Positions 46,663-58,279 of a DNA stretch of 64,000 bases are shown in pieces (the first letter of the stretch is position 1; the number at the start of each line of letters is the position of its first letter). Source of the DNA: a virus; IMG/VR virus record IMGVR_UViG_3300035670_000058, positions 32,001-96,000 of that record. The stretch is one strand, 5' to 3'. Under the pieces are notes generated by a model. It searched no databases, had not been told where the DNA came from, and saw only the letters and a list, made by a program, of their open reading frames with translations. The translations under genes and the position numbers were made by a program.

Positions 46663-47094
46663 GAATTACGCCGGCACCTCTGTTACATGGAGAGTTTTTT
46701 AATTATATTTATATCAGTATATATACGTAATTGACACCTTTTATTCCTAGGCAATTGCGCAGCCAATGGAGCGCAGCGTATTTTAGAGGCGTATTGCCTT
46801 GGAATAATATATCCTTTTTTATATGGATTTAGCCAATAGACTACGAACACAGAGTAAGTCAGTATTATTTAGCCAATGGAGCGCGCCGCCTAATAGGTAC
46901 GTATTATCCTGGAGAATATAGAATGAAATTGAATTAGAATTAAGCTCCGGTTACTGTTACGATATATACAATATATTTATATCTATTTGCCAGCTCTTGC
47001 AGCTTATCCCTTTACCACCTGGCCTTGCCTAGCTGATTGCGCATGCAATTGTCTGTCCCTATAAAATTCATTTGTTGCGATTTGCAAATAATGC

Positions 47095-47123
47095 TTGACA
47101 AGCGCCGCGCGGTGTGCGACAAT
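47095..47123 (+). promoter_or_regulatory. Sigma70-type promoter of cassette A
   Basis: TTGACA-17-GACAAT with TG extension. Confidence 0.75.
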
Positions 47124-47239
47124 CCTCTTGTACCCGAAAGGGAGCACCTTTACAAGAGAATAGAGAGGGCAAGGCGAAAGGTAGCCTAATTCTCCGTCCT
47201 GACTAACTAGCATTTATGCTAGAGAAAGGAGGTGAAAAT

Positions 47240-47536
47240 ATGGCAACGTATCATATCGCCAAGATGCGTGTCGTGCGGCCATCCGAAAAGATGGCGGCAA
47301 AGCATCCCGACCGTTTCGCAACGGTTTTCGGTATCTTTGCTAATGAGCAGGGGCAGCGGCTTAGCATTACGTCTAAGGTAATTACCATTGACGAGGCTAA
47401 GGATAGCGATACTACGATTGACATCGTGAATGGTATTCTTACTCTTCCCGATGGAAAGCGTGGTCGCACCGCTTCCGAATCCATTTCGCAGGACGATATC
47501 GAAGCGGAACTCGCAGCGCTTCGCGGAGAGAATTAG
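47240..47536 (+). CDS. Cassette A protein (98 aa), paralog of cassette B
   Basis: SD AAAGGAGGTG; MRVVRP...PDR..TV.G.F...LSI..K.....AK......V.NG.LTLP.GKRGR....AELAALRGE shared with B. Confidence 0.85.
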   Translation: MATYHIAKMRVVRPSEKMAAKHPDRFATVFGIFANEQGQRLSITSKVITIDEAKDSDTTIDIVNGILTLPDGKRGRTASESISQDDIEAELAALRGEN

Positions 47537-47999
47537 TTACTAATTAGCCAAAACCCTCTCTATTCTCAGAAAGGATAAACTAATACTGAATTAGTATTAT
47601 AAAACGAATTGAATTTCGATGCCGGCCAGGTTCTTGAGCCAATGGAGCGTAGCGTATATCAGGTACGCCATATATATTTGAATTTGAATTATGTTCTTGT
47701 TCTTGTTATATATCCTGGATTATATTTGAATTTAAATTCTGTTCCTGTTTTATATTTTAGCCAATAGATTTCCATTCTCATCTGGGGGGGGGTGAGCCAA
47801 TAGAGGGGGGGGGATGAATGCCGGCCAAGCTCACCGACAATGTGAGAATAGAGCCTGTGGGCGACCAATACATTGGTCAGTATTGTCCACCTAGAAACAC
47901 TTGACAGGGTATGCGCCTTGTGGCAGTATATGGGTGTCAGAGATGACAGGGACCCGAGAGGGACCCGAGAACCTTAACAAGTGAATAGCAGGGGATAGG

Positions 48000-48401
48000 G
48001 TGACAAGGCCCGACAAGGGCGAAAGGGAAACTCCCATTAGCGTCACCTACTTCGTGGATCGGATGCGCGTCATCCGGCCCACAGGGAAGACCAAGGATCG
48101 GAACCCTGATCGGGTCTTCACCGTCAACGGCGTCTTCTACTCCACCGAGAGGGATGCCAAGGGCAACATCATCGTCAAGGACAAGTTGTCCATCATCACC
48201 AAGAACGTGGACGTGGATGACGCCAAGTCCACCGAATTCGCCCTTGACGTGACGAACGGCTACCTGACGCTCCCTGAGGGGAAGCGTGGCCGGGTCGCAC
48301 AGGCGGGGCTGGCAGAGGCGGATATCCTCGCGGAATTGGCCGCGCTGCGTGGCGAGGACACCGACGACACCGAAACCGAAACCGAAACGGAAACCGACTA
48401 G
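48000..48401 (+). CDS. Cassette B protein, paralog of A (true start uncertain, possibly ATT 48036)
   Basis: Clear similarity to 47240..47536; promoter TTGACA 47901; acidic TE-repeat tail. Confidence 0.8.
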   Translation: MTRPDKGERETPISVTYFVDRMRVIRPTGKTKDRNPDRVFTVNGVFYSTERDAKGNIIVKDKLSIITKNVDVDDAKSTEFALDVTNGYLTLPEGKRGRVAQAGLAEADILAELAALRGEDTDDTETETETETD

Positions 48402-48801
48402 GTATTAATTCACCCATCCCCTGCTATTCCTACCAATTTAATGAGAATGCCGGCGAGCTGCATATATATACAAATTAAGAATTGAATAAGAAATCTTAAC
48501 CTGTTTACTAAATAAGCCAATAGACTCCCGGCTCAATTGGAGGGGGGAAGCCAATGGAGGGGGGTGGCATAAAGGGACGCCCATACCTGGGATATATGCG
48601 CATATTCGAATTGAATTCGAATTGCCGTTCTGTTCCTGTTTTAGTGAATTGAATTAGCGCACCTGTTCGGTTACGTGCAACGCGCACAGGGATACCTGGC
48701 CGAGCCGGCCAGTAGCTGCGCGTGCAACTACCCTGGATTCGACGCGCACGGCAAAGCCCTACCCGAAGGGGTAGGGCTTGCCTGTTGGGAAGGACTAGGG
48801 A

Positions 48802-49083
48802 CTAGTCGATCATCTCCTCGTAGGGCTTGTCGAAGAAGCCACCGGGGACCGACTCGTTGAGCCTGTCCCACAGGTTCCGCGCTTCCGCGTTCATGTCGCG
48901 GTCACGCATTTCCTGATGGATGAGGTAGAGGCCAAAGGTGACCTCATCGACGGTCGGGACGCCAAGGTCCACGCCCACCGATTCCTGAAGGAGAGCCAAG
49001 GGGAACATGGTGTCGGTACCCTCGTAACCGAAATCCACCAGTGCCCCGTAATCGAGTCCCTTCAGGTACTCAATCGGGTCCAT
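48802..49083 (-). CDS. Cassette C protein (93 aa, acidic), family with E and H
   Basis: SD GGAAGGA before ATG 49083; hairpin at ~48750-48782. Confidence 0.75.
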   Translation of the reverse strand: MDPIEYLKGLDYGALVDFGYEGTDTMFPLALLQESVGVDLGVPTVDEVTFGLYLIHQEMRDRDMNAEARNLWDRLNESVPGGFFDKPYEEMID

Positions 49084-49663
49084 TATTCGGTTATCCTTCC
49101 CTGTTGCCTTGGGTTCTTCCCTTCCCCTTGGGGTCGGTCCCTGCTGTTTCCGACATCCATAGATTAGCACGACCACCATAGGGATGAAGAGCTCAATGTC
49201 ACAAGAATTCGTGACCAATGGCACTATGCAAGCGCCGGCAATTGTGCTACAATCCTCTGGGACAGCCCAGGGTGCGAAGCCAATAGAATGCGTCAGCAGA
49301 CTGGGGCGTGAGCCAATGGAGCGCAGCGTGTATGTTGGGCGCATGGAATATACAGTAGATGAGTATTAGAATTGAACTGCGGTTCTGTTCCTGTACTGTA
49401 GAGGATTAGCCGTTCTGTTCTGTTAGGTATATGGTGTATAGCAAGGTGCCGGCTTCGCGCCATTTCACGCTATCCTGGATGAATCTATACTGATTCGCTA
49501 TGATATAGGCTCGATTTGTCCTGGTCTATTGAGCTATCCAAGCCGGCTCAAATCGCCCAATAATCGATTATTCTGGGCGCAAGAAACCCCTTGACAACAT
49601 TCACCAGGTGCGCTAATCTACTGGTAGATCAAGAAACGCTCCTACAGGGAAGGGACACCAGAA

Positions 49664-49909
49664 ATGTTGGACGCAGCGACACTCATCGAGGACGGGTACG
49701 ACCCGGACATGGCGGCGAAAGAATTGATGGAGGATGCACAATTCATCATCAGCGATCTGGCCGAGGATCTTCGCAGCCAGGATCGCAGACTACAGGATGC
49801 ATTCTCTGGGCAGGAAATCCCCGAAATCGTCTGGGACGCGATCTGCGCCATCAAGGCGACGGTCAAACATCTCGATAGCGCGGAGGATGCACTGGTCCGA
49901 TATATGTGA
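49664..49909 (+). CDS. Cassette D protein (81 aa, acidic helical)
   Basis: TTGACA-17-TAATCT (49591-49619); hairpin 49921-49957. Confidence 0.75.
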   Translation: MLDAATLIEDGYDPDMAAKELMEDAQFIISDLAEDLRSQDRRLQDAFSGQEIPEIVWDAICAIKATVKHLDSAEDALVRYM

Positions 49910-50306
49910 ATAACCGAATATATTAGTGCGGGGGTAATACATACTCCCGCACTAATACATAGCCCTGGAGTAATATATAAGTCCTGGGGTACTAGAATAG
50001 AATATAAATAAATCTTAACAATAAGAAATCTTAACCTGTTTAGTAAATTAGCCAATGGAACGCATGCATAAAAATGCACGCCGAGCCAATGGAGCGTATA
50101 TATAATATTGGGCGGGTGTGTGTTTGAATACGAATTGAACATCCGTTCTGTTCCTGTTTGAATAGCACCTCGATTCCTGTTATGCGCATAAGCGCATAGC
50201 ACGCGCATAGCGTGCGCCTAGGCGTGAGCTTGCCGGCCCTATGGGCCAGGCACTTGAGCATGGTGATAGGGGAGAGGCTTTCGCGCTCTCCCCTATCTGC
50301 TAGAGT

Positions 50307-50612
50307 CTAGTAGTTGACGGGCTTGGTGGACCGGACGAACGAGGCGTACTCGCTGTAGGTCTGGTCCTCAAGGATCGTGCCGTTCGGAGAAGCGGCGTTG
50401 ATCCGGTTGAAGAGATCGACTGCATCCCCGTCCAGATCGCGCCACACCAGATGGGCGTGGATCATCTGGGAGAGAAGAGTGTCGGTGGAGATGGTGTAAG
50501 GATCGCCGCTCTTGACTGCCTCCGCGTAGAGGCTGGCCTCCTCCTGTGCAATCGCCACCAGAACGTGATCCGGCACGATGCTCAGGTAGACCATCATCTC
50601 TTCAGGCCCCAT
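50307..50612 (-). CDS. Cassette E protein (101 aa)
   Basis: SD AAAGGA; hairpin ~50264-50297; similarity to C and H. Confidence 0.75.
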   Translation of the reverse strand: MGPEEMMVYLSIVPDHVLVAIAQEEASLYAEAVKSGDPYTISTDTLLSQMIHAHLVWRDLDGDAVDLFNRINAASPNGTILEDQTYSEYASFVRSTKPVNY

Positions 50613-51050
50613 CTATTCAGTTATCCTTTCCTACTGCTGGCCCCTCTGGCCCTGTCAGATCGTGTATCGATCTGATAGGTGTATCTTCGTCTATAGCGCT
50701 ATCATGATATAGGTCCATATGGGGTAGATATTTGTGACCAATGGCACTTGACACACAGGGGATGATGTGCTAGCCGGCAAATAGAACAGGCGTTCTAAAG
50801 CTGTGCGAGCCAATAGATTCAACATCCATTGAATGGCGCATGAGCCAATGGAGCGTGCCGCGTGTATGGGGCGCAGGAATATATACCAACTATGTATTAG
50901 AATCGAATATCGGTTCTGTTCCTGTCATAATGAATTAGCCTGATGTGTTGTTCTGTTATATCTCCTGAGGCCGGCTGTGCGCCTCTCCTGTGAGTCGCCT
51001 GGCCCTAGGGCAAAGAGAAAGGACCGGGTGTCCAGCCCGGTCCTTAGTCT

Positions 51051-51299
51051 CTAGCGGAAGTCGATATCCAGAATGGTCAGGCTTCCGTCGCTGATTTCCT
51101 TCTGTAGAGCATCGACTTCGATTTCGATGCGAGCGATCTTGGTATGGAGAGTATCGAGGATTTCCGCGAGAGCGATCTGCTCCTCGTTATCATCGGTGAT
51201 TTCGGTGATCTGATCAGCGATCTGGTTGACCCACCAATTCGCGTCACCAATCTGCCCGATGACCTTCTCCAGCCCTTCGATCAGAAGGTCTGTATTCAC
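51051..51299 (-). CDS. Cassette F protein (82 aa, acidic coiled coil)
   Basis: SD GAAGGAAGGA before GTG 51299; hairpin ~51019-51045. Confidence 0.7.
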   Translation of the reverse strand: MNTDLLIEGLEKVIGQIGDANWWVNQIADQITEITDDNEEQIALAEILDTLHTKIARIEIEVDALQKEISDGSLTILDIDFR

Positions 51300-51840
51300 T
51301 TGGGTCCTTCCTTCGCTACTGGCCTGGCCTGTCCTTATTGGGGACAAGCCCATTGTGCGCCTATTCCGCTGATATGTCAATACCCTTTATGCAGTTGGTC
51401 ACTATTGTCCACCTATTCTGTGAGCAGTACAAAGGTCCCAAAAGATGTGACATTTGGCCCTTGACAGGAGCCGGCAGATATGCTAGCTCTACTTGCATAC
51501 TTGCGCAAGCAGCTAAGTGACAAAAGTCACAAAAAAATGTGACAAATGGCACTTGACAAAGCCAATAGACTCCAGGCTCTATCCTGGGCGCAAGCCAATG
51601 GACCTAGCCTTATATCTTGGACGCATGTATGAATATACTGATATACGCATATATGGATGAATTGAATTACGAATTCGGTTCTGTACATGTTCTGTTATAT
51701 GGCCTGGCCTGTTAGGCTGTTCTGTTATAGAGATATAGCGCGATGAATTCCTGGCCGGCTGGTGAGCTTTCCCACGCGCATGGGCCAGGCGATGGGCAAA
51801 GAGACAGGGCCGGGATCGCTCCCGGCCCTGTCGCCTCACC

Positions 51841-52146
51841 CTAGGCTGTAGGGTGGGCCGCTTCGAACGGCATTCCCCGTCCGATCCCCGTCCGATGGGC
51901 GTTAGCCGCATCGTAGAGGCGCTTAGCGATGCCACGGTGACGACGCCAGATCGCTTCGTCCACCAGCCGATCCACCAGCGCGGCAATCGTGCGAGGATCG
52001 ATTTCCTCGCCCGTCACCAGCACCAGCGTGAGGCTACCGGACTCTTCGATCTGCTCCGCGAGGCTGCGAGCCATAGCGAAGATCGCGCCCGACGACTGCT
52101 CCCGCAGATCGAGTGCGATGGGATCGAACATTTGGCCTAGCACCAT
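51841..52146 (-). CDS. Cassette G protein (~100 aa)
   Basis: SD AGGAAAGGA; hairpin 51803-51832 directly after the stop. Confidence 0.65.
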   Translation of the reverse strand: MVLGQMFDPIALDLREQSSGAIFAMARSLAEQIEESGSLTLVLVTGEEIDPRTIAALVDRLVDEAIWRRHRGIAKRLYDAANAHRTGIGRGMPFEAAHPTA

Positions 52147-52664
52147 CCTTTCCTATATCACCTTGGAACAAGGTGATTGTACGCCTCGCGGCTAATAGAT
52201 ACCTAGGGCCAAAAGTCCCGAAAAAAAGTGACAAATGGCCCTTGACAAGCTATGCCGGCATATGTTAGGGGCCAGGTTAAGAAATCTTAGCTTGTTTAGT
52301 AAACTAAGCCAATGGAGCGTGTACTATAAATGGTACGCCCGTTCTATTTCCAGGGCTTGAGCCAATGGACCTAGCCTTATTAGGGGGGCGCAGGAATATA
52401 TCACTGATTGAATTAGAATTGAATTACGGTTCTGTTAGGATTACATACCAATCCAAGTTCTGTTATGCGCATGTATGTATCCTGGGCACATATATCGCCG
52501 GCTGATATATTCCTGGCCTAGCAGTAGCTTGTTGCCGGCGCAACAGCTCATGCGGCATGAAGTATATATTGGTCACTATTGTCCACCCGAATTCTCTTGA
52601 CACAGCCAGGTGCATCCGGTACGCTTAGCCTGCGTCCAGCGGCAAAGATAGTACGGGAGATGAC

Positions 52665-53018
52665 ATGGACCAGAACGGCGGCACTCAGGACTTCCTGAGC
52701 GAGATCGCGCACGCGACATGGATCGCGTGCAACCCTCAGACCACATCCCCTGCCGACGTCGAGGAATTGGGTATCCTCGCAATCCGCGATCTCAACGCAG
52801 CCATCGAGAATGGCGACTACATGATGGCGACCGTAGCCAACGCAATCGTGTCCACCGTCCATCGCGCAATGGTCTGCCGGGGAATGTTCCTCGACGCGAC
52901 CGATCTCTTCTGCCGGGTCAACGCTACTGCCAAGAGCATCGGCATCGATGACATGCTCGACGGGCAGACCTACACCGAATACGTCGAGGCGATCCTCGAC
53001 TGGTACGCTCAGGCGTAG
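52665..53018 (+). CDS. Cassette H protein (117 aa)
   Basis: TTGACA-17-TACGCT (52597-52625); SD GGGAG; hairpin ~53032-53058; similarity to E. Confidence 0.78.
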   Translation: MDQNGGTQDFLSEIAHATWIACNPQTTSPADVEELGILAIRDLNAAIENGDYMMATVANAIVSTVHRAMVCRGMFLDATDLFCRVNATAKSIGIDDMLDGQTYTEYVEAILDWYAQA

Positions 53019-53457
53019 CGATCCACTAGGGTAGGGAGGCTAGCAATAGCCTCCCTATTCCTGTTGCCCTGGCCAGGGGCGCATATATATGCATGCATAC
53101 TCATACAATGGGTATGCAATATTGCGTATAGACGCAATAGAACATCCGTTCTGTTTCGTTCTGAGCCAATGGAGCGTGCGCTGTTATAGGTGCGCCCATG
53201 TTCTGCGCATAGTGTACCGTTCTGTGTTCTGTTATATAGGGCCGGCTATACGATAGGTCCTGGGGTAAGCTTTACCTTGAGCTATATGGCCGGCTCTATA
53301 TCTAATACCTGGGTATACCTTACATCTAGGTATAAGGTACACCTTATAACTTCAGGCCATCTTGGTGACATTTGGCCCATTGACAGTGACCAATGGCATA
53401 TAGTAGAGTACGGGCATGGTCATCTACTTCCACTCCACTAGCACAGGGGGCCACGCT

Positions 53458-53993
53458 ATGGCACCGGATAGGCGCGATGCGCGCGTTGCAGCGCGGATCG
53501 CACAGGCGCAGGATCGCGCTGCGCGCGATGCTCGCAACACTGCGCGCGACAATGGCAAGTCAGAGTCAGATACGGCATACGATTACAGGATGGGAGCGGC
53601 ACAGTGAAGCGCAATCAGGCGCATCCCTGCTACGTCAACGGCAACACCCCTACGGGCATGGCGCATATGCCCATTGGCCGCTACGTGGAGTCAGTCCGCT
53701 ACGGCGCATCCCTCACAATCGGCAACATCGTCCGTCGCAACGCTCTCCGCTACATGCTGGACGATGCCGCACAGGTCGCCGACACCGATACCACAATGGC
53801 GCTGCTAGATACAATCGAACACTACACTCCCAGTGTGCCGCGCTGCATGGGCACCGACACCGACTGCAACCACACACAGTCGGTGCACGACTGGGATGGA
53901 TGCTTGCACGATACGTGCGAGTGCACCCTGCGATACGGTCGCGGTGTCAATCGACTCAATGAGATGATCATGGCAGAGGGATACATGATCTGA
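53458..53993 (+). CDS. Cassette I: two coupled small proteins (53458-53607; 53604-53993 with Cys/His cluster)
   Basis: TTGACA 53380; GTGA overlap; C.H....H....C.H..CEC; hairpin ~54014-54044. Confidence 0.6.
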
Positions 53994-54331
53994 CTTTCAC
54001 AACTCAAATTCACAATTAGGGCCGGTTATACGCCGGCCCTAATTCATATTACCCAGGTTGCGTGATTGCGCAAGTACGCAAGACCCCCCCCTATATTCGC
54101 ATCGAATTAGTGCACATTCAACGCCGTCGAGCTCTGTTACTGTACATAAATCCGAGGTCAACTTTTTGAAACTTTTTAGAATACGTCTGCCTTCATTCTG
54201 AAGGTACTATACAAAAATACGAGGTCAATTTTTTCCAGTTTTTTAGAAGACCTCTAGAGTAAAAAAATGGGAGCAAAAATTTCACAGTTTTTTAGATAAC
54301 TCTCGTCATAGTATACGGTAAAATTGGGCAT

Positions 54332-54916
54332 AAAAAAGTAAAGCCCCCAAGGAGCAAACGACTTCGGGGGGAAAGTCATTCGATCAACTTGGAGGCTTTA
54401 CTTTGATCTGAACAACAGCCGAAATTAATTTTCAGATCAAAGCAAGGATCAGCGCCGCATACGTGGCGGCATCTATTCAGTTAGGTTCTGCGCCCTATCA
54501 GTACATTTGGGCGCAGAGTCTGGTTGCTTTACAACAAAGGATTTTTTGCTGTATTACTACGTGAATTTGAGTGTTCCTTGGCAACCTTTCTGTCAATGGA
54601 GAGTCTAGACTTCCTGACAGTGCCGCTGGGGTCGCTTTCACGTATACTGACCAGAACTATCCAACAACCACATTGGGGTACAATATAGTTGTTATATAGC
54701 CGAAGGTTTTGATTGACCTATCAGATGCATTCAGTCAATCAATCAGATGCATGATACGCAGATAAGGGGCCGTGAGACACCCTCTGTGTATGATGCAGAG
54801 AACGAGATTTCCAAATCATTCTCTTACGTCTGTCTGATATCAGCAGAGAGTTTGCCAGAAGGAGTCCTGATCTTTTGAGGGACCAGAGGTTTCTGGTTGT
54901 CTCCCCCGCTGCTGAT
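54332..54916 (-). ncRNA. Candidate large structured non-coding RNA (~585 nt); strand tentative
   Basis: No credible ORF; at least 8 consecutive or nested stems; minus-strand TTGACG-17-TACAGT promoter (54951-54923) and terminator-like stem plus T6 at 54404-54332. Confidence 0.6.
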
Positions 54917-55599
54917 GTATGTACTGTACCGTGCCCCAGACGACCCGTCAAGTTGCGGTTCGGTTACAACTCGGGGGCAAAGGCTCTATTTTTGGGAGCC
55001 GAGGGATAAAAACTCACCTTGACAACCAATTGCCAATCGGCTATGCTAGTAGGTACAGAGAGGGGAGTATTTTATCGCCTGAAATCTGGTCGATTTTTTC
55101 GACAGTTAATGTGGCTTGTCCGCAGTAGAATTGCGGTAGTAACCATTTCGGCGTCCTTTGTTCGAACAGTTGTTCTTGAATTCCTTTCAGGGAGGAATTG
55201 TTTCGTTGGACCCAGATTATGAAGCCTACCGATTGTGCGGCAAGTGTGGGAATATGAAACCTCAGACAGAGGAATATTTCTACATCATGCGCCCAAGAGG
55301 GCCGCACAAGAGCATCGGTTGGCAATCGTATTGCCGCGAGTGCTGGAAAGACATCAATGCGGCGAATAAACTTCGCAGGAAGTTGGCGTGCAAGTGACCT
55401 ACATCAACACTGATTGCTGGTGCTATGGTGTCGGTTGCGAGTGGTGTTTCTGTGGATGGGATGAGCAATGACGTTTGTGAAGTGTTCTGTTCCTGTTGGC
55501 GCTAGGCCGGTGTTCCATTTCTGCAATCGCAGGAATGAACTCGCCTCTTGTCTGCACTGCAAGAAGGTTTTCTGCAAGCAGCACATGAGCAGACATCGC

Positions 55600-57814: not shown

Positions 57815-58279
57815 ATGTCACTCACAAAGAAACCTAAAATATATGACTACTACGTCCTAGTGTATAAGCCCTCTCACCCCGCAGTTGTGGGCGATGGCTA
57901 TGTACCTGAACAGATTCTCGTTGCAGAAGAAGAACTAGGACGTTACCTATATCCAGACGAATCAGTACGACACAAGAACGGGGACACAAATGACAATAGG
58001 CCAAGTAACTTGGAGGTTGTATCGGCTAGCCACGGATACAAGATAGTTAATCTTGGTACTGAGCATGTTGAACCCCGCAAGGGTGCTTCTCGCACGTTTA
58101 TGCCTTGCAAGTTTCAGAAGCCGTGCTGGAAAGAGATTAGAGCGCCTATGGCGAGAAAGCACAAGATTTACCTTCCCTACATTTGCAGTTATCAGGAGTC
58201 AGGGGATGTATACAAGTGTTCAAGATTTTGGGGTTATGTTGATAAAGTTACAGAAGAAAGAGGGAGCGATAAAAATTGA
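57815..58279 (+). CDS. HNH endonuclease-domain protein
   Basis: GYVPE..LVAEE.LGRYL...E.V.HKNGD..DNRPSNL. Confidence 0.8.
   Translation: MSLTKKPKIYDYYVLVYKPSHPAVVGDGYVPEQILVAEEELGRYLYPDESVRHKNGDTNDNRPSNLEVVSASHGYKIVNLGTEHVEPRKGASRTFMPCKFQKPCWKEIRAPMARKHKIYLPYICSYQESGDVYKCSRFWGYVDKVTEERGSDKN

Follow-up and report, generated by a model that had tools for sequence, protein, structure and literature searches.

Few phage RNAs of ~600 nt are known, and most of them are of unassigned function. The GOLLD and ROOL-type families are characterised by many invariant nucleotides and by a shared multi-junction fold. RNAIII from Staphylococcus aureus is a regulatory hairpin chain of ~500 nt which has its own promoter and embeds a peptide gene; it base-pairs with G-rich ribosome-binding sites by means of C-rich loops, one of which is that of its terminator hairpin. 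ColE1 RNA II is a structured transcript of ~550 nt in which a G-rich/C-rich contact takes place, and the EutX/Rli55-type sRNAs are stand-alone, terminated non-coding RNAs composed of a sensor-like riboswitch domain and further hairpins. Another phage-associated structured RNA, manA, is a cis-regulatory riboswitch candidate found in the 5' UTRs of genes from marine phages and bacteria (PMC2864571; PMC9964418).

The DNA analysed in this work (the window) is a stretch of 64,000 nucleotides that corresponds to positions 32001-96000 of a complete 114,680-bp phage record of IMG/VR, whose genome has a 127-bp terminal repeat. The genes of this phage include those coding for a DnaB-type helicase, a primase, a family A DNA polymerase and a ribonucleotide reductase. 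The DNA polymerase shares only ~31% identity with its counterpart in any deposited phage, which indicates an uncultivated lineage. A first-pass annotation had proposed that the ORF-poor segment 54332-54951 encodes a large structured ncRNA comparable to ROOL and GOLLD. This proposal stands as far as the segment is non-coding, exceptionally structured and provided with a predicted promoter and a predicted terminator of its own, and its predicted boundaries are clear; the likeness to ROOL and GOLLD is not supported, as there is no Rfam match and the interior is not conserved. The locus shares with these families, as well as with OLE, HEARO and raiA, a length of 400-600+ nt, the non-coding character, the many helices and the location in a phage genome, but here the interior is unconserved even between phages whose DNA polymerases are ~71% identical.

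The reading preferred here, with a probability of about 0.6, is that the locus constitutes an independent early minus-strand unit making a structured ncRNA of ~585 nt that acts in trans. In the mechanism proposed, the host RNA polymerase would start early at the consensus-like sigma-70 promoter and would stop ~585 nt further on at an unusually long intrinsic terminator, and the non-coding product would fold into a stable chain of hairpins, whose 5' hairpin and 3' terminator are what a long-lived RNA would be expected to have. Exposed conserved elements (ACCUAACUGAAUA and the C-rich loops, C6 included) would then be presented to a host or phage partner, which might be a protein that is sequestered or scaffolded, or G-rich mRNA sites paired in the manner of RNAIII. 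The promoter, the terminator and the AT-rich element would form a conserved slot, and the folded body placed in it would turn over fast.

Genomic setting and transcription signals

The RNA unit sits in a 1.1-kb ORF-poor gap (54045-55157; Table 1). On the left of the gap the plus-strand genes stop at 53993 and converge on the unit, and the hairpin that closes them has counterpart terminator hairpins at the same place in two related phages. These relatives, G001 (complete, 119,870 bp) and G002 (complete, 120,336 bp), were the only ones with the gap in scans of IMG/VR carried out with the transglycosylase, DNA polymerase, HNH and zinc-finger proteins. Each has a DNA polymerase that shares 71-72% identity with that of the window phage, and both genomes show the same gap within the same gene order. 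The minus-strand promoter, the divergent promoter, the minus-strand terminator with its U-run and the ~55-bp AT-rich element are kept in both of them.

Table 1. Positions of the features of the RNA locus in the window (RNA elements are predicted).
Feature	Position	Strand	Remarks
Perfect 12-bp hairpin	54014-54044		Closes the converging plus-strand genes; left boundary of the gap
AT-rich block	54133-54310		2.5 copies of a ~55-bp unit (TACTGTACATAAAT...TTTTTTAGA)
Extended -10-like site TGTTACTGT	54135-54143	+	In the first repeat copy; read from the sequence, not by scan
Predicted ncRNA, ~585 nt	54332-54916	-	Chain of ~15 mostly local hairpins
3' domain, ~190 nt	54332-54521	-	Sole part alignable with G001
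Long intrinsic terminator	54332-54404	-	Hairpin 54404-54335, then U6
Hairpin Hc, 12-18 bp	54398-54445	-	In the 3' domain
Hairpin Hb, 7-nt loop	54454-54470	-	Followed by GAUCC
Single-stranded motif ACCUAACUGAAUA	54474-54486	-	Conserved with G001
Hairpin Ha	54488-54518	-	In the 3' domain
5' domain, ~77 nt	54840-54916	-	Closed by AUCAGCAG/CUGCUGAU; holds the G-run GGGGGA
Sigma-70-type promoter TTGACG-17-TACAGT	54923-54951	-	Consensus scan; predicted +1 near 54916
Divergent partner promoter TTGACA-17-TATGCT	55019-55047	+	Scan; predicted to drive the zinc-finger gene
Small zinc-finger gene	55194-55397	+	Right of the gap; conserved in relatives

The minus-strand promoter and start point read by the first-pass annotation were recovered by the consensus scan, and the last stem followed by T6 on the same strand was verified in the sequence; the predicted RNA opens with a stem and closes with a terminator. 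In G001 and G002 the -35 box with the ~14 nt that precede it (AACC..AACTTGAC) and the -10/+1 block (GTACA) of the RNA promoter are invariant or near-invariant, and the AAAA.T...CTTGAC block of the divergent promoter is kept too. The locus thus has the marks of a stand-alone RNA gene, namely its own predicted promoter, an intrinsic terminator and negative results in the coding tests described below. We infer that the unit is transcribed and that its RNA is stable and acts in trans.

The DNA between the divergent promoters shows two further details. In G001 a 7-bp inverted repeat, GTTAAGG TT CCTTAAC (L008:5196-5211), directly adjoins the RNA promoter at its -35 box; it is partly retained in G002, and CGGTT CGGTT is found instead in the window (~54948-54966). 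This GTTAAGG/CCTTAAC repeat may be an operator common to both promoters. Besides, a perfect DnaA-box consensus, TTATCCACA, is located between the divergent promoters of G002 (L009:2135-2143, minus strand of the locus), and it is absent at the corresponding place in the window and in G001.

Folding, coding potential and RNA families

All eight stems listed for the segment by the earlier reading are present, either as inverted repeats or as helices of the MFE structure. When the 620-nt segment was compared with its dinucleotide shuffles, the minus strand folded to -223.2 kcal/mol (shuffles -168.7; z -9.24) and the plus strand to -210.7 kcal/mol (shuffles -174.1; z -5.10), values that lie well beyond chance. 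The genome as a whole is unusually structured for mostly coding DNA, its 600-nt windows having a mean z of -2.3 (sd 1.7, n=71). The background was taken from 71 other 600-nt windows of the same genome, both strands being folded. The native-minus-shuffle energy of these windows has a mean of -13.7 kcal/mol, a standard deviation of 9.4 and a minimum of -34.4 (n=71), and that of the minus strand of the RNA segment is -54.5 kcal/mol; this excess beats all 71 background windows and is placed ~4 sd from the genome mean. A scan in 200-nt windows confined the excess to ~54200-54900: on the minus strand z goes from -3 to -6.6 over 54200-54899, and the flanks have values of ~-0.5 to -2.5. The plus strand is weaker throughout. 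The segment has no paralogue elsewhere in the phage genome.

The same strand bias is displayed by the counterparts in the related phages: the unit from G001 has a z of -9.0 on the RNA strand vs -6.3 on the opposite one, and that from G002 a z of -5.8 vs -2.8. In the three phages the RNA strand is 17-23 kcal/mol more stable than its complement and contains more G-U pairs. The strand had been left undecided at first reading, and it is now assigned as minus, given that the promoter and the terminator are conserved on it and that this strand folds better in all three phages.

With respect to coding potential, the longest ORFs inside the segment have 70, 54 and 47 aa. The existence of ORFs of 23-70 aa on both strands would allow one or more small proteins to be encoded, but this is very improbable: none of the small ORFs of the segment has a ribosome-binding site plus ATG, none of the ORFs matches Pfam, tblastx and a small-ORF comparison of the three loci revealed neither similarity nor a conserved ORF position, and the 70-aa ORF begins inside the -35 box, upstream of the predicted transcript start. 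A type I toxin-antitoxin pair was also rejected, as no hydrophobic or conserved small ORF is present in any of the three loci. A CsrA sponge was discarded because GGA motifs, counted by eye, are not in excess.

ARAGORN and Rfam detected neither tmRNA nor RNase P, in agreement with what had been noted previously, nor any tRNA. When both strands were compared with Rfam 15, no family matched at its gathering score, and only terminator look-alikes appeared for the window RNA at E<=10. Membership of GOLLD, ROOL, OLE, HEARO or raiA was discarded because none of these covariance models matched either strand, at the gathering score or at E<=10. The window's own RNA is unclassified, with no family match.

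Conservation and turnover of the RNA body

The body of the RNA has 585 nt in the window, ~555 nt in G001 and ~395 nt in G002. In all three RNAs the first hairpin begins no more than 12 nt from the predicted start, and CAG..GGGG occurs close to the 5' end; for the 5' domain of the window RNA, alternative long-range pairings are predicted as well. Outside the 3' domain common to the window and G001, no interior similarity among the three loci was found by blastn or tblastx, MAFFT gave no meaningful alignment of the full RNAs in their 5' two-thirds, and the 6-mers common to the three RNAs are as many as expected by chance (9 observed, 8.1 expected).

The 3' domain consists, in this order, of Ha, ACCUAACUGAAUA, Hb, GAUCC, Hc and the terminator, and the 8- to 9-mers that it has in common with the G001 domain occur in the same order. 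The single-stranded motif has the consensus ACCUAACU(G/U)AAUA in the two phages. The Hb stem is GCCGC/GCGGC in the window and GCGUC/GACGC in G001, both with 7-nt loops, so that pairing is kept between these two sequences; this paired change needs a 2-nt gap after the helix, and MAFFT places the gap in the loop instead. Ha and Hc agree between both phages by position only. Across the three loci, compensated helices can be read in the 3' domain only, from two sequences, and the interior beyond it is unalignable.

The terminator is composed of a 17-bp outer stem, the internal loops UUGAUCGA / UUUGCUCC, an 11-bp inner stem and a CCCCCC apical loop, the latter being predicted as unpaired with P=0.98. 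Its loops are identical in the window and G001 (internal UUGAUYGA and UUUGMUCC, apical CCCCCC). Pairing is also kept in the inner stem, GACUUU/GAAGUC vs GAGUUU/GGACUC in G001, and the outer stem differs from that of G001 at several positions and in length. The paired changes of the terminator carry less weight, because terminator stems are selected to pair anyway.

The C6 terminator loop is one of three unpaired C-runs in the window RNA. These runs, together with the hairpin chain and the promoter of its own (predicted here), are what this RNA has in common with RNAIII. On the other hand, there is no homology between them, no peptide gene is embedded here, and the conserved single-stranded motif lacks a target in the phage genome, where no complementary sites were found.

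The G001 RNA contains a domain that the window RNA lacks. An interior stretch of the G001 RNA (L008:4826-4991, minus strand) matches Rfam's model for manA (RF01745) end to end and on the predicted RNA strand, with 34.2 bits and an E-value of 3.7e-7 in the local search (1.8e-8 per genome). This match keeps the GAC-loop hairpin, CUGAAU..AAACUU, the 7-bp stem and the GGGUA...AAUCCC hairpin, one stem of the model being deleted and the closing helix mismatched. Membership of the manA family was rejected, since the score from G001 is below the gathering score (55.2) and the window has no match, either at E<=10 or in a whole-genome search. The Rfam model has no match in G002 either, and a covariance model built from the G001 domain found nothing in the window or in G002. 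The position typical of manA in a 5' UTR was discarded too: in all three phages the strand of the RNA bears no ORF downstream, and the RNA itself closes with an intrinsic terminator. The likeness to manA consists of a phage-associated structured RNA whose G001 counterpart carries a matching domain, and the difference is that manA sits in 5' UTRs whereas the units from G001 and the window are terminated and have no downstream gene. The phage in which the match lies is unrelated to the T4-like cyanophages.

The location of this match on the RNA strand provides independent evidence that the slot expresses a structured RNA on that strand, and its restriction to G001 means that the bodies differ in content between relatives. 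Only the G001 version, in which a manA-like domain and further hairpins end at a terminator, is similar to the EutX/Rli55-type sRNAs; no homology with them is known and the likeness is not applicable to the window RNA. If the RNA is real, a manA-like domain, so far known as an orphan riboswitch candidate, would be located in a stand-alone RNA and in a different phage lineage.

The pattern that emerges is unusual, in the sense that transcription signals and degree of folding are kept while the sequence, and possibly the fold, turns over. One way to understand it, which is put forward tentatively and held to be rather doubtful, is that hyper-structured RNAs are interchanged in a conserved expression slot, their body of 400-600 nt being replaced or rewritten from one close relative to another, and that the locus represents a new class of fast-evolving phage long ncRNA. 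The pace of change would suggest in this case a role in an arms race, for instance one in which the RNA acts as a decoy and diverts a host nuclease or RNA-binding defence, and the orphan manA motif would gain a trans-acting context outside 5' UTRs. If such RNAs are real, phages maintain long "structure-first" RNAs that homology searches have missed.

The same lack of interior alignment would also be expected if the region were a non-functional spacer, that is, a hairpin-rich remnant of decayed cassettes or palindromes between transcription modules that lies by chance behind a promoter. Hairpins abound throughout the genome, a hypervariable cassette array borders the region, and the unit is missing in more distant relatives. 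This explanation is nevertheless considered improbable. Synonymous sites are saturated among the three lineages, so neutral drift would not keep z values of -6 to -9 on the same strand; moreover, conservation extends to the promoter, the terminator and two single-stranded motifs, and the segment resembles neither the cassette array nor the rest of the genome. The maintenance of the fold excess and of the strand bias in interiors that share no sequence is instead the main argument for selection on the folding of the minus-strand RNA, and not on its sequence, as the preferred reading of a trans-acting ncRNA supposes.

All the occurrences found belong to one phage clade. In more distant relatives, whose HNH and zinc-finger proteins are respectively ~60% and 61-64% identical to those of the window, the unit is absent and protein genes occupy the space, from which it follows that it is dispensable for the wider lineage. 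No match of the segment was obtained by blastn against 50,697 phage records, and a scan of genome contigs gave no homologue. Among the loci from a metagenome scan (L019-L025), ORFs immediately precede the zinc-finger gene in L019, and a large gap is missing in L020. The search for homologues of the zinc-finger protein yielded one Logan protein. Scans of DNA with two conserved motifs as patterns returned only G001 and chance matches; L040 was rejected as a homologue because it falls in a coding region, and L026-L039 because they lack the Hb hairpin.

The AT-rich block and the surrounding DNA

Beyond the terminator, the units of the AT-rich block contain phased T/A tracts ~11 bp apart. They occur nowhere else in the genome, which led to their rejection as a genome-wide promoter motif, and with a GC content of 0.30-0.31 the block belongs to the lowest 0.3% of the 150-bp windows of the genome. 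One to two units are kept in G001 and G002, better than the RNA interior. The RNA locus is 3-7 kb away from the ribonucleotide reductase, primase and DNA polymerase genes. The block may alternatively act at the DNA level, for instance as an origin.

A second explanation of the whole locus, judged to be unlikely, starts from this point: the region would be a DNA-level element (a replication origin or a protein-binding control region), the repeats would serve as iterons or as an unwinding element, and the transcript would only activate or prime, as described for T7/T4 and ColE1 RNA II. The uniqueness of the repeats, their extreme AT content, their better conservation and the proximity of replication genes are in favour of it, as is the promoter pointing to the repeats; the 5' G-run and the 3' C-run loosely recall the contact made in ColE1 RNA II. 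The locus would share with this RNA and with the T7/T4 origin transcripts a structured transcript directed towards an AT-rich region near replication genes. However, a strong and conserved intrinsic terminator separates here the RNA from the repeats, for which reason a primer of the ColE1 RNA II type, running unterminated into an origin, was discarded. Furthermore, DNA hairpins would not give the strand-asymmetric fold excess found in the three phages, the GC skew of the genome has no shift at the RNA locus and no origin signal, and the DnaA box is a feature of G002 only.

The block also holds the plus-strand -10-like site of Table 1, and TGTTAC(T/A)GT is kept on this strand in the three phages. 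As judged from its sequence, this site could start a convergent RNA overlapping the terminator hairpin. The possibility then arises of a cis-acting orphan leader or sensor, in which the RNA, with the manA-like domain of its G001 version, would control read-through of its terminator into antisense transcription that covers the AT-rich element as well as the 3' ends of the converging genes, or would pair with the convergent RNA started at 54135-54143; the terminator hairpin would be common to both convergent RNAs. The description of manA RNAs as cis-regulatory riboswitch candidates (PMC2864571) goes in the same direction. Such a role is regarded as improbable, given that none of the three phages has a minus-strand gene downstream, the window RNA has no manA-like domain, the plus-strand site escaped the scan and has no -35 element, and a type I toxin pair would require a small hydrophobic ORF, of which there is none.

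Some other elements of the region deserve a brief description. In the 5' UTR of the zinc-finger gene, GGTCGATTTTTTC (55088-55100) resembles the core GGTCAA(C/T)TTTTT of the AT-rich repeats (54156, 54223). An HNH-type endonuclease gene (window 57815-58279, plus strand) is located immediately upstream of the ribonucleotide reductase gene; its product is 82-86% identical to those of the relatives, which makes it the best conserved protein of the neighbourhood, above the reductase or the polymerase. To the left, the motif AGCCAATRGA has 19 exact plus-strand copies in window 46761-53173, mostly as pairs 33-53 bp apart that recur about every 760 bp; when one mismatch is allowed, 30 matches are found in the window vs 9.7 expected. 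This array coincides with a GC-richer segment (0.52-0.54 vs ~0.44), and ends ~900 bp left of the RNA gap. Finally, the 11-mer UGUCUCACGGC (RNA strand) is shared by the window (54140-54150; position 140 of the window RNA) and G001 (L008:4717-4727; position 448 of the G001 RNA). Both positions are non-collinear and ~0.08 such matches are expected by chance; this 11-mer could be a shuffled module or a shared binding motif.
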